From Eledone cirrhosa (taxonomy: Eukaryota), in the NCBI GenBank assembly GCA_964016885.1, contig OZ024743.1, positions 60,574,001-60,638,000 on the forward strand: 64,000 nucleotides of DNA, in the 5' to 3' direction. A model generated the notes under the pieces. It was not told the origin of the DNA, did not search any database, and saw only the letters and a list, made by a program, of their open reading frames with translations. The position numbers were made by a program, and so were the translations under genes. Below are positions 3,746-63,562 of this stretch, one piece after another. The number at the start of each line of letters is the position of its first letter. Position 1 is the first letter of the stretch.

Positions 3746-4232
3746 ATTGTTATACTTTGGGAGGGTCATGTTGCCAATAAGAAACACACGCACCAGTTGT
3801 TTTCACTTCAATTTATTATATATTTATAAATTTATAAATTTACAAATCTACAAACTTATAAATTTCTGGTTGGTTGGTTGGTTCCACAACCAGATAGTTG
3901 TTTATATATAGTCATAGTCCTTTCGTCACACACTCTGTGACCTCTTCAGTGACTGGGGATTCCTTTCTTTGTTTCTGTGCCTTTCCTTTCTTCTGTCCTA
4001 CGCCATTTTGTTTCTGTGTGTGTGTTGTGTGCTCAGTTTGCGCATGCGCCACATCCGGGTGTCTGTGTGTGTTTGTGTTCATTTATCTATTTGTTTATTT
4101 ATTTACATGTTGTTGGTTGGTTGTTTGTTCTATGTGTGTGTGTGTTTTCATTTTGTCCTTAATTGTAAGTTGTGATGTTGCTGTTCCACTCATATTTTCT
4201 ATTTAATTTTGGTTGTAATTCTTTTATGCTTA
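3746..4232 (-). mobile_element. 5'-truncated Penelope-like element (last EN codons plus 3' UTR/pLTR)
   Basis: Near-identical reverse complement of ~60070-60545; encodes IKELQPK end of the GIY-YIG ORF; (TA)n on both sides. Confidence 0.88.
3910..3954 (-). ncRNA. Minimal type I hammerhead ribozyme in PLE 3' UTR
   Basis: Minus reads agtca-CTGAAGA-g-gtcac(agagtgt)gtgac-GAAA-gga-CTA|tgact: 5-bp stem I, 5-bp stem II, CUA cleavage triplet. Confidence 0.75.
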
Positions 4233-5714
4233 TATATATATATCTTGTTACCCGGAGATTTACCCATTTGCATTGTCGAGGCTTCCAAACGACTTAAAGA
4301 AATTTATATATATATATATATATATATATATATATATATAAATCAATGAATAGTATTTTTACATACCACTGCGCAAATTATGAATTTTGAATGAATGTTA
4401 GCTTAAGGTAAGCTTCCTGAATGTACGCTGAATTTTATAATGAAAAATAATCGTATAAATCAGGCATAGAAGCCACTTAGAGACGGGAAGAGGGTAGCAT
4501 TACCTGCTTTATTCGAACTCACACCTACTGTACATATTTGATTTTTACATTTTGACTCTGACAGGTCTAGCTTCTGTTGGTGGAGGTTCCAAATGAGAAA
4601 CTAAGATAAATGTAACAGTTTATTATATAAAAGCTTAACTCTACATTTCGTATTAAAGTCTATATCGAATAATGTTTTACCGCTGAATAATATAATCTCA
4701 TATATATATATATATATATATATATGTGTGTGTGTGTGTGTGTGTGTGTGTGTGTTTGCGAAAATGCACACACATACAAGCATATTCATACATATATATA
4801 GAGAGAGAGCGAGGGGAGAGAGAGTGCAAGAGATTCTAAGCAAAGAAAAGATCTCGGTTATCGATGAGAAAAAGAACCAAAACTATGCTTTACTGAAGTG
4901 ACCCGATTGTTTACAGAAGTAGGTCCAATATTTTGAAAACAGGTCAATAAGTTGAACAGTATAGCATCTCCATATTGAGATATAATGTATTTAGCGTTAA
5001 AGTGAATGTCCATCATGAATGTAGTGTTTGGTAATGTTCTATAGTAATGTTTTAAAACAACAACTAGAAAGATTTTGTTATTGAATAACTCACATCAACA
5101 AAGCAGTAAGGCTGAAATTTCTATATTAATAGTTTAACGGACGTAGTGTGTGCTCACTGAAGTTTACTTGTTGCCAAAAGCAATTTAATACAGCAATGTC
5201 GAGAGAATAAGCAGCCATATCTTGTTGGGAATTTTCCATTGATATATTTATTATTTCGGTGAAGACATAGCTGTCTGTGTAAGAGAGATAGAAGGAGAGA
5301 ACGAGAGACAGAGAGAAAGAGAGACAGAGAGAAGGAGAGACAGAGAGAAAGAGATGTGAGTGTAGGAAAGAAAGAGACAGAAAAGAAGGAGAGATATGTC
5401 GAAAAGCATATCTGCAGCACCTCTTACTTGGAACGGATTCAAGTCGATCTCCTTTATAATATTCCTTTATCAAAATATATCATTGTTGTTGTTGTTTTGT
5501 TTTAGATGTTATGTGATCTGATAGTTAAGTTCTTGGTGAATCTGCAGTGTTTTTTCTTTTTTTCTTTTTTTTTTTTGTTGTTGTTGTCTTTTTATGTTTA
5601 TGCAGCAAACTAAGCGGCCCAACTTCCTTTAACTGATGAATTCTAGTTAGAATTGAGAAATAAGAAATGAGGTCAAACATAGTCTAGATCTGTCTACAGT
5701 TTGCTGGATACAGC

Positions 5715-6040
5715 ATAGTAAAGTTTGCTTTAGAAGAATTAGGTCTCGAGTTCGATCTCACTGCGTGGCATTTGGGTCACCTCTCATTAGTCAGAGCATC
5801 GGGTCGGCCTATACTTGTGAGTGAAACTGGATAGACGGAAGTTGTTTTGAAGCCTGTCGGATCGACAGTACGTGTAATTCACAAGGCCAGTCTTGTCACA
5901 CACTGTCTCGGTGAATCACCCTGAGAGTTATATTTAAAGCCCGTGTCTGTGGAATACTCAGCCACTCTATAGGTAGAACAATTGGAACACTCATAGTAGA
6001 AATCGACATAGGCTCGTTCTTGCACTTAGAAAAAATAGTA
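5715..6040 (+). mobile_element. SINE-like family C; other copies ~9135-9700 (two), 11010-11480, 25790-26065, and minus-strand pieces ~7530-7740, 24580-24670, 33545-33685, 52700-52910, 54330-54550, 61680-61920
   Basis: Recurring blocks gttcgatc-cactgcgtggca, gtgagtgaa-tagacggaa and ctgaatc-ctgaga-gtctgtggaatactcagccact. Confidence 0.7.
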
Positions 6041-6798
6041 AGGTAAATTATCGGTACTTTTCTCTTAACAGAATATTGTAGAACAGAAATATACACAGTA
6101 AAATAGAAATAATCGATAGCTAATAATTGCTTATTACTCGACTGGATGGGTACAGACGATGGGTTCGGCATGGCAATAATGTATAATAATATATTAATGT
6201 TACTTTTTGCATCGACCCCGGAAGCTGAAACGAATAATAAACAATGGTAGATTATTTTTGTTTTATTTAATAGTAATACAATGAAGCATCTACTGTAGCA
6301 TATCATGTTGGTCTTGTATTGTTCCCCCTATTTCTACTATTCCAATATTGTAAACAAAACCTTCGATATTTTTTGAGAGTGTTATTTATTTTATTATTGT
6401 TTTCTCTGTATCTCTGCCGCATTGTTCTATTGTTTCACACGCTTTAATGAGTAATAGTTGCAGGAATTAGAAGAAATGGTTTGTAAAATATATATAAATG
6501 ATAAGATATCTATCTATTTCATTGATTCCAAAGAAGTAGTAACAGTGCTTCGATAGTTACAACTTTGTGTCGCACACGTGAAGAAGTGTGAATTTGTATT
6601 CTTTCAATGGTATTAACAGTATACCTTGCAAAAGCTACACACATGTTTAACGGTTGTTTTATCCAGTAATGGAATATTTAAATGCAGCGGGTAAGAAAGT
6701 GTGATTATGTACACGAGAATCAGACAAATAAGCAAAGGTATATATAGAAATGAACTAAGTGGATATTCTATTTTGTAAAATGACTTTACTACATCACG

Positions 6799-60808: not shown

Positions 60809-60884
60809 TATATATGTATATATGTACATGAGAGTATTGAAGTTTGCATGAAGCATTGTGGAATAATAAAAACATTTTTATGGG

Positions 60885-61500
60885 GGGGGGGCTCGTTTCG
60901 GAAACCTCAACAATGCAGATGGGTAAATCACGGAGTAACAGAATCCGGTGGTGAAGAGAGAGATGTAAGGGAGTGTAGAATGAGATGTATAGTGTGTAGA
61001 AGAACGTAGGAAAGAGTGTAGAAAATAAAAATAATAACACGAGATAGAGTTACTTTGGGAGAGATTTAATTGTCCCTATATTTCGGATTTGCATCCATCA
61101 ACTGGAGGCTTTTCCGGGGAGGGAGGTTTATCCGCCGTAGAGTAACAGTACGTGGCGTCTGTTGTCCGCTGTTTGTGTGTAACTGAGGTATTTTGACTAC
61201 CTCACTTACACACAAACGAATACCTCAGTTACACACAAACAGCGGCCACGTACCATTCCTCTTCGACGGATAGCTTTCGCCACCGGAAACTCCCCACCCC
61301 CAGTTGATGGATGCGAATCCGAAATATAGGGACAATTAAATCTCTCCCAAGGTAACTCTATCTCGTGTTTCCTTCCTACGTTCCTCTACACACTATACAT
61401 CTCATTCTACACTCCCTTACATCTCTCTCTTCACCGCCAGATTCTGTTACCCAGGGATTTACCCATTTGCATTGGTGAGGCCCCCAAAACGTCCACCCCA
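60885..61500. mobile_element. Large fold-back element (~290-bp diverged arms); 3'-end fragment also at 4243-4292
   Basis: aatgcagatgggtaaatc...aactgaggtatt versus aatacctcagtt...gatttacccatttgcatt. Confidence 0.85.
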
Positions 61501-62894
61501 AAAATATTATATATATATATATATATATAAGTATGTATACGTACGTACATACATATATGTGTACAGACGTACAGTAGTATGTATATATATACATACATGC
61601 ACACATATATATATATATATACGTATGGGTTTACCGAACATTTATTATAATGTTCGGTTTGTTTGTAAACAAACAGCCCGAATTACGACGTACAGTGCTC
61701 GGCAACCATCGTCGCCCTTTTGTTCAACACTGACACAGGAACGATGTACTAGTTTCAAGATTATTAGCTATTGTCAGCATCGTATACCTTTCTGTCAGAT
61801 GGATGAACGTCTGAAAGTATATACTTTCCTTATGCATATTAACGGCTGAGCAGCCTAATTTGCATATCGAGTGAGTTAGTCGGTCGGGCGTACCGTAATT
61901 ACAGTTATTTACAGTTATCGCACATCTCATATATGCATAATGGTTTATAAATCAGGCAGGAGACCAGTAACTTTGGGAAGACACTTCTGTTCATTACATC
62001 TATCTCAGTGCTTTAGTGGTACCTTTATTTAACAACCCTCCACAATGATGGGCTTGTACTTTATTTTTTCTCAAACCCTGGAGAATGAAAAGTAATGTTG
62101 ACCCCGGCGGTATTTGAACTCAGAAACTAAATAGCCATAAGTAAATACCGTATGAGTTCTATCGATTCTGAAATTCCAATAGAAAACTGAAAACCCTAAC
62201 CACTAAGCCACTTCTCATCACCATATTTCGTACAGTTCTCAACGGATAGAAAAAAAATGGTACCATTAAGATTTCTAAAATTTGAGATAGAAATCTTATA
62301 ACGTTTCCTATTTCCTGGATTTCTCGTATTTCAAAGATTCTTTTCTTGTATTTCAAAGATAAATATTGAAAGACTATTAGAAGGAAAATAAACGTAATAT
62401 ATGTATTATCCGTGAGATAAGAATATGAAGAGGAATACAAATCATTCCCTGCAGATTCACAAATTATCTTGAGTGGAAAATGTGGTTAATGTCGAAAGGA
62501 CATCACTATATTTAGATTTAATATATACATACACAAAACACACATACACGTGCGTATATATATATACACACACACATATGTATGTATATATATATATATA
62601 TATATATATATATATATATATATATATATATAATTATATATATATATATGTGTGTGTGTGTGTGTGTGTGTGTGTATAGTATATTATATTATACTGTGTT
62701 ATATTTTATATAGTGAGAAGGTGTACAACATAACTAGAACTATTTCATTCGTACGAAGCCATCAGTAAATATTCTTTTCTATTATTGTATTGGGTACCGT
62801 GTATAATATTTATATGTGCATGTATGCATGCATGTATATATATATATATATATATATATATATATATATATATATATATATATATATATATATA

Positions 62895-63562
62895 TATTGT
62901 TATATTTGGGGACGGTCATATTGTTGTAATAATATTGCCAGAAATAATAATAGAACACACTCACTGTTTGGTTTGGTTTGGTTTGGGTTGGTTTTCGCTT
63001 CTGTATATTTTATACCTCCATAGCTAATTTATCTGGCAATCAATGTTTATCATTGATTTACCAACGGTTAAAAATATAAATATAAATATATATATATATA
63101 TATATATATATATATATAGTCTATCAAAGTTCTTTCGTCACGCATCTGTGACATCATCAGTGGTACTATTATGCTTCCTCCCATTGTATTTTAATTCCTA
63201 AGCGATCTTTATTTTATTTATTTATTTAGTCTTGTCTCTGTCTCTGTTTGCGCATGCGTTTGCGTGTGTTTTCCCTGTTTGGTGTGTGTGTTCGCGTTTG
63301 AGTGTATGTGTTTTTGTATTCTATCTTTGTTCACAAGTGTGTTTGTTGTTATTGTACTTGTGTATGTATGTACTTGTGTATGTATTTATTTATTTATATT
63401 TCCCTTGGGTCAGTATTATGTGTTTGGGTATGGTTATTGTTGTTATTCTGTTCTTTCTGTTCAACTTTGGTTTTCTTAGTTCTATCTCAGTTGCTTCTCT
63501 GATTTGCTTACCTGTTGAGTTATTTCTATGCTTAGATATTATTTTAATTTCTATGCTCTCTA
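62895..63562 (-). mobile_element. 5'-truncated Penelope-like element, subfamily 2, with HHR at 63122-63165
   Basis: Minus encodes IEIKIISKHRNNSTGKQIREATEIELRKPKLNRK; UTR like 49150-49675; tacca-CTGATGA-t-gtcac(agatgc)gtgac-GAAA-gaa-CTT|tgata. Confidence 0.85.

Follow-up and report, generated by a model that had tools for sequence, protein, structure and literature searches.

The question raised by a 64-kb stretch of the Eledone cirrhosa genome (contig OZ024743.1 of assembly GCA_964016885.1, positions 60,574,001 to 60,638,000; hereafter the window, its first nucleotide being position 1) is to what kind of element its many hammerhead ribozyme (HHR) motifs belong, and how such elements were inserted. 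An earlier note on this DNA had proposed an exceptional density of HHRs in about eight families, attributed to a Penelope-driven community of autonomous elements and many ribozyme-bearing parasites living in TA microsatellites. The overall reading reached here is that the HHRs are mostly the ends of Penelope-like elements (PLEs), together with retrozymes, lying beside TA tracts, and that the two-armed insertions that carry them were probably made by a PLE enzyme priming two cDNAs. The element types are already known; no account of the insertion footprints was found in the literature searched.

Hammerhead motifs of the window

The type I HHR scan checks all three helices, the CUGANGA and GAAA core and the NUH site. 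Its descriptor tolerates a mismatch or bulge at the base of stem II, a stricter first descriptor having lost nearly all motifs. Twenty-two strict matches were obtained in the window, 15 in a tandem array and 7 outside it, against a mean of 0.035 and a maximum of 1 in 200 block-wise dinucleotide shuffles, the control that the earlier note had proposed. The core C3 positions are 3949(-), 12313(+), 12684(-)/12786(+), 28527(-), 38182(+), 40318(-)/40334(+), 49450(+), 59103(+), 60351(+), 60675(-) and 63160(-), plus the 15 array motifs, and every position listed previously holds an HHR-derived motif. The families are indeed distinct, but they number ten rather than about eight, those at 50359(-)/50393(+) and at 55209(-, core broken)/55501(+) having been missed.

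Judged by sequence and structure the hammerheads are real motifs with core, cleavage site and three helices, and self-cleavage is predicted, although some copies are broken. The core was said to be conserved, but several copies are damaged or deviate: GAAA has become GGGA at 12313, 12786 and 38182 carry a U4C change, 60351 has G at N17, and at 59103 the 3' strand of stem I is mostly missing. Stem II is weak at 28527, 49450 and 60675. By comparison of 38182 with loci L239-L254, the U4C change is a subfamily trait and not a lesion of one copy; the canonical core is present in related copies. A scan against Rfam was uninformative either way, with no HHR family among the best 150 of its 310 matches, which were chance matches to microsatellites and hairpins. 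A home-made scan for hammerheads in scrambled order, its descriptor unvalidated on a known case, found none in the window or in 40 genome blocks.

The families and their parents

The HHR families are almost certainly PLE ends and retrozymes. By their sequences five of the ten are 3' ends of coding PLEs, two (A and D) are non-coding retrozymes and three (E, G and H) have no identified parent. The idea of a Penelope-driven community in TA microsatellites is supported, coding PLE parents being found for 5 of 10 families, whereas the supposed parasites are mostly not separate elements: these five families are 5'-truncated coding-PLE ends, and two were shown to be retrozymes. The HHR-bearing insertions are as follows, pLTR denoting the pseudo-long terminal repeat of a PLE.

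3748..4228 (-): 3' end of PLE-1, a tailless pLTR whose HHR core (3949) is intact; 90% identical to 60076-60542; found by HHR scan
12106..12430 (+): family B copy, the 3' terminus of a coding PLE, GAAA broken in HHR 12313; downstream of a GIY-YIG frame in L089, L179 and L157
12507..12860 (palindrome): family D retrozyme, two head-to-head arms, HHRs 12684(-) and 12786(+, U4C); left end approximate
15484..17080 (-): tailed arm of the family A array, with 5.1 units of 311 bp and its outer end at +166 after the HHR cut site
17078..20201 (+): family A array, untailed arm, 10 units; outer end at +131 to +140
28462..28624: family G, HHR arm (28527, -) and short tailed opposite arm; parent not found
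38179..38427 (+): family H, HHR 38182 (U4C) and a tail of ~160 nt; parent not found
40191..40387: family C palindromic stub, Hydra-type PLE pLTR, HHRs 40318(-) and 40334(+); apex near 40326
48499..49671 (+): PLE-2 3' part, broken GIY-YIG region 48519-49162, HHR 49450; 51-61% amino acid identity to PLE-1
50118..50497: family E, two arms, HHRs 50359(-) and 50393(+), tail of ~140 nt; parent not found
55105..55687: Hydra-type PLE end in two arms (family F), one with HHR 55209(-, broken) and one with HHR 55501(+)
58969..59192 (+): family B, second copy, HHR 59103, internal deletion in stem I
59249..60602 (+): PLE-1 insertion with HHR 60351 (N17=G) and a 57-nt tail; its inverted arm is untailed, and its GIY-YIG frame spans 59555-60097
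60620..60813: family C relative, older two-armed stub, HHR 60675(-); 81% identical to 40193-40386; ends approximate
62897..63590 (-): PLE-2, second copy, HHR 63160; 67% identical to 49043-49670; 5' end approximate

In PLE-1 the HHR lies downstream of a GIY-YIG frame, which in the window (59555-60097) matches Pfam with E=3.6e-4, under the curated cut-off. Full copies elsewhere contain an 863-amino acid (aa) frame with reverse transcriptase (RT) and endonuclease joined by a CX4CxxC linker; RVT_1 (E=1e-3) and GIY-YIG (E=3.6e-4) are again both under the Pfam cut-offs. All 150 protein copies scored, of 35,415 candidates, are 97-100% identical. PLE-2 (49450 and 63160) is a relative of which the endonuclease part only is seen. 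Family B, represented by 3,203 exact 28-mers in the genome, follows a GIY-YIG frame with a Cys linker in the three loci listed above. Of 30 family C loci sampled in their order along the genome, 2 continue into an RT frame, and RT and endonuclease frames lie between the arms of family F in all 6 long loci fetched. A single frame with RT and C-terminal GIY-YIG is thus found, in B as the endonuclease part only, in C as the RT part and in F as both. The HHR within the pLTR, the inverted truncated copy and the one-sided tail, as counted for PLE-1, B, C and F, are those of endonuclease-positive PLEs, although B is mostly single-ended.

By the presence of motifs rather than by a tree, C and F have the DKT, C the RWR and F the CxCx5C of the Hydra clade, which is described as having DKT and RWK-like motifs, a CxCx5C linker and (TA)n targets (PMC8557442; this and the other papers are cited from the available parts of their texts). 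Likewise by motif only, PLE-1 and B have the CX2-5CxxC linker before GIY-YIG, as in Neptune/Nematis. For E, G and H (16, 12 and 16 loci) neither a PLE frame joined to the HHR within 1.5 kb nor a tandem unit was found; these families could be long PLE untranslated regions or non-autonomous PLEs.

A shared insertion footprint

The insertions consist of two head-to-head arms. Measured from the HHR cut site, their outer 3' ends take one of two fixed positions, and (TA)n follows. In PLE-1, C, D, E, F, G and H these distances have a bimodal distribution. The two end sites are closest together in A and D, with a gap of 35 nt; the gap widens to 57 nt in PLE-1, 65 in G, ~70 in C, 90 in F, 140 in E and 160 in H. 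Each insertion tends to use both sites: in 10 of 10 divergent PLE-1 pairs (a hand count of pairs picked from the match list) one arm is tailed and its partner is not, 45 of 50 family C palindromes pair a short arm with a long one (one has two long arms and 4 are uncallable), and all 32 complete second arms of family A end at +126 to +140. In 13 of 36 family A loci the untailed arm exceeds the tailed one in length, and the tailed arm carries sequence absent from the other, so that neither arm is a simple copy of its partner.

L1 twin priming, in which a single target supplies two primers and the 5' segment becomes inverted, is a familiar parallel. The insertions here differ from it in that the two priming sites are both fixed and internal, poly(A) is absent, and the arms overlap in content.

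Retrozyme families A and D

Families A and D are dispersed, non-coding tandem monomers with a type I HHR in each unit, in the 150-450 bp range of non-LTR retrozymes. The tandem structure of D is seen where it continues past the tail (L125-L127). Outside the HHR, D has 77-82% local identity to the array monomer; the likeness surrounds the two start sites, yet the HHRs differ, which suggests, from sequence comparison, a conserved recognition element combined with ribozyme exchange. Target-site duplications of A and D are unreadable inside (TA)n.

The genome contains 1,013 exact junctions of the family A tail with TA, and the first 40 in genome order were taken as a sample. Thirty-six have two arms and one is truly single; the other 3 run into a gap or the edge of the fetched sequence. 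Arms reach 19 or more units; their lengths are weakly correlated (rho 0.30, P=0.09), which is uninformative. Most units have a 6-bp helix I, in which the window variant has a one-base bulge. In the 33 loci with at least 2 full units there are 19 haplotypes, and by hand count the same haplotype fills both arms in 23 of 24 testable loci, against a probability of 0.068 for two random loci. The inner junctions are spread over the monomer, and most differ in phase between the arms. With only 2 of 72 lying 10 nt or less from the cut site, the template was not a cleaved linear monomer. A 2-6 nt overlap is present at the inner junction in 14 of 36 loci (hand count).

Across L199-L238 the changes that define the haplotypes cluster in the HHR (N7, and the base and loop of stem II), and their recurrence on different backgrounds is a hint, from the sequences, of recombination between templates. 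An 80-nt segment ending in the HHR of A (17498-17577) aligns at 71-73% (E 6e-4 to 2e-3) with the family C palindrome of L130, L141 and L153, its antisense arm as well; a fold-back PLE stub may have been the source of the family A retrozyme. PLE frames beside the array in L042 were considered as a partner of A and rejected as separate insertions across TA tracts. One closed 310-nt contig each from the sequencing runs X4, X5 and X6 (with many variant contigs from X1) was not used as evidence, since tandem DNA gives the same.

Family C stubs and a cap-like G

In 965 loci both family C arms end within 8 nt above stem I. The first 50, selected for an apex near stem I with a pattern that left the apex bases free, were compared with long copies of the pLTR. 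In 9 of 12 long copies a TATAAATA box lies 31 nt above +2, and the base before +1 is C. The stubs end 30 nt below this TATA box; a spacing of ~30 nt and such an initiator pattern are typical of transcription starts. In 28 of 34 stub arms G precedes the A at +1, and the templated CCA is found in none of 100. An extra G is present on at least one arm in 31 of 50 loci and on both arms in 13, the stub at 40191..40387 in the window being of the latter kind. We read this untemplated G, as a prediction from the sequence, as reverse transcription into the 5' cap; in L1, an extra 5' G is added opposite the cap. A cap-like G would imply a capped, HHR-uncut template and a separate cDNA for each arm.

The genome contains many 123-bp palindromes that are 98-100% identical. 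The notion of a fixed, self-copying 123-bp element was rejected as a product of best-hit bias, samples in genome order showing variable apexes and a coding parent. The symmetric, fixed terminal inverted repeats of a miniature inverted-repeat transposable element (MITE) are not seen: ends are unequal in 45 of the 50 loci, and apex sequences differ widely.

Density and TA association

The genome was sampled as 40 arbitrary 10-kb blocks at round coordinates (400 kb). The strict scan found 24 HHRs, 2 of which resemble chance matches, giving 3.84 per 64 kb, or roughly 60 per Mb. Outside the array the window has 7 (P=0.10, binomial; 0.11, block resampling). The broader scan gives 9 against 28 in the blocks (P=0.04-0.055, uncorrected, for a window that had been picked for its HHRs). 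The density is about twice the genome mean and not clearly significant (P ~0.1), so that calling it exceptional was not borne out. HHR density is a genome-wide property, and the density claim carries little weight, as it mirrors an HHR-rich genome. Scaled by hand to a genome size taken as 3.0 Gb, the 24 in 0.4 Mb extrapolate to ~180,000 strict HHRs per genome (range roughly 115,000-270,000).

Tracts of (TA)6 or more are no commoner in the window (101) than in the genome sample (99 per 64 kb). All 17 hand-listed non-array motifs, one of which was misplaced by 9 nt in this test, lie within 300 bp of such a tract, against 39% of random positions, and so do 22 of the 24 HHRs in the blocks, against a background of 30%. 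The association with TA holds in both; family B copies often end in (CA)n instead of (TA)n.

Proposed mechanism and alternatives

In the mechanism proposed here a PLE protein, probably a dimer, would nick both strands of (TA)n, and each nicked 3' end would prime reverse transcription, the two starting at different sites of the RNA, proximal and distal. One priming site per strand end would give the one-sided tail. The two cDNA ends would then be joined head to head, often at 2-6 nt of microhomology. For the family C stubs the template would be a capped, pre-cleavage RNA, each cDNA running to the cap, and for family A a single HHR-generated monomer circle copied round and round into ready-made clonal arrays. 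That each insertion comprises two independent cDNAs is considered highly probable, whereas a circular template for family A, the circles themselves being a prediction from sequence, is favoured by a modest margin of confidence. The most complete form of the proposal is plausible but falls short of probable: the dimer would prime both strands of a TA break on one RNA with one active site per start site, an event that the genome would record, capped RNA giving the cap-G stubs and a 310-nt ribozyme circle the two clonal arrays, with family A as a viroid-like RNA born from a fold-back PLE end.

Several observations weigh against this proposal. Family B is mostly single-ended. The family A sample was selected for an exact tailed end, as the family C sample was for its apex, and the assembly can mis-size long perfect arrays. 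In 5 of the 40 A loci (L211, L212, L220, L222 and L235) variants occur in some units only, which points to block duplication after insertion or to mixed templates; the arms of L222 differ. In L231 a variant is present in the outer full unit of each arm and absent from the inner partial units, a pattern that fits a multimeric template or arm-to-arm conversion. Finally, the start-site region of A and D matches no coding PLE in roughly 1.3 Mb searched for the PLE that mobilises them.

An origin of the family A arrays from long linear read-through transcripts, or from a short insertion expanded locally by unequal crossover together with gene conversion between the arms, would dispense with the circle. 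It is unlikely but deserves serious consideration, since local expansion has been proposed for retrozymes (10.64898/2026.07.22.740005), repeated private variants lie 2-7 units apart in family A, and one locus is a mosaic. Moreover, helix III of the family A HHR is a palindrome of 2 bp; hammerheads of this type are reported to be poor at monomer cleavage (PMC4209133), so that multimers may persist. However, each of the 19 haplotypes is fixed through both inverted arms, an intermediate-frequency variant extends over many units in only 1 of 33 loci, and private variants are rare (34 in 86 kb), leaving little time for homogenisation.

The inverted arm might instead arise by snap-back self-priming of a single cDNA or on an antisense template, as junction palindromes in rotifer Penelope elements have been interpreted (PMC3846280), and some junctions (the window array, L041 and L043) are near-perfect fold-backs. 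This is improbable as a general explanation given that arms often hold sequence that the other arm lacks (the 13 of 36 above), that both outer ends are fixed at different sites, that each arm can have its own extra G, and that the inner junctions are mostly out of phase. Least credible by far is a reading of the short palindromes as MITE-like DNA elements that propagate themselves and target TA, and of the window as a special HHR hotspot; TA flanks and the many near-identical 123-bp palindromes would suit such elements, but the ends are asymmetric, the apexes of the 50 loci are many and different, the stubs are continuous with PLE reading frames, and the genome-wide density of HHRs is close to that of the window.

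Other repeats of the window

A further TA-bounded family occurs at 20316-20358, 20717-20893, 24114-24320, 50001-50056 and 56569-56770, often as a fold-back with a one-sided extension; these copies have no canonical HHR core, and the family is probably another PLE end. More TA-bounded fold-back elements, with no HHR match, lie at 12976-13195, 56278-56508 and 60886-61499 (also 4246-4292). A 49-bp piece between TA tracts, 98% identical at 12911-12959 and 14150-14198 and also found beside L049 and L195, may be a tail-only insertion. The remnant of an eleventh HHR family at 49805-49880 (also 24428-24470) ends before CUGANGA and is fuller in L269 and L279. Short remnants of family B are present at 51543-51624, 52018-52085 and 56809-56948. 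The region 25050-25676 consists of 2.7 identical copies of a 232-bp unit without an HHR, which has a 73-bp stretch in common with a dispersed repeat at 3085, 36075, 46855 and 47042.

Relation to known systems

HHRs in PLE ends are described as forming many sequence families per genome, mostly truncated, with opposite-strand pairs 100-700 bp apart (PMC4209133). Endonuclease-positive PLEs have an inverted 5'-truncated copy and a one-sided tail of 30-40 bp, with (TA)n targets in the Neptune and Hydra clades (PMC8557442). The elements described here resemble these HHR-bearing pLTRs in their type I HHR, the extra base between A9 and stem II and the palindromic helix III, as well as in the many truncated families, the close opposite-strand pairs, the inverted copy, the one-sided tail and the TA targets. 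The published pLTRs have tails of 30-40 nt, whereas those here measure from 35 to ~160 nt. Further differences are the TATA-defined start, with its untemplated G, at which the stubs end, and an HHR load that extrapolates to the figure given above.

Retrozymes are described as linear and circular monomer RNAs, with PLEs as a candidate mobiliser (PMC7229834), and as derivatives of PLE ends whose arrays expanded locally (10.64898/2026.07.22.740005). Like metazoan non-LTR retrozymes (the same two sources), family A is dispersed and built of AT-rich, non-coding tandem monomers of 310 bp, each with a single type I HHR; unlike them it comes as two divergent arms that end in (TA)n at the two PLE sites, with a single haplotype at each locus. 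As to inverted retrozyme arrays, the word 'inverted' is absent from the available text of PMC7229834. For the anole Poseidon element PAc in vitro, both strands are cut and extended, two RT start sites match the tail, a dimer is predicted, uncut RNA is used, HHR cleavage is not needed and the target is AT-rich (PMC11167929). The proposed priming on two strands fits these data by analogy, although the parts of that paper available do not assign either start site to one arm of an inverted insertion and report no start-site difference between strands, whereas here each arm of an insertion has one site. No published report was found of two-armed clonal retrozyme arrays, of a cap-like G at PLE stubs or of tails >40 nt, in a literature coverage that was incomplete and did not include supplements; cephalopod genome papers contributed nothing on these points.

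Implications

The origin of the inverted PLE copies with their one-sided tail, and likewise the mobilisation of animal retrozymes, are stated to be open in the available texts of PMC8557442, PMC7229834 and 10.64898/2026.07.22.740005. In the young families of E. cirrhosa the start sites are fixed and a cap site is predicted, and an intact 863-aa PLE frame is available together with a 310-nt template; both mechanistic questions thereby become testable in vitro. If the complete form of the proposal is true, family A would be a viroid-like RNA of at least 19 haplotypes with over 1,000 very recent insertions.

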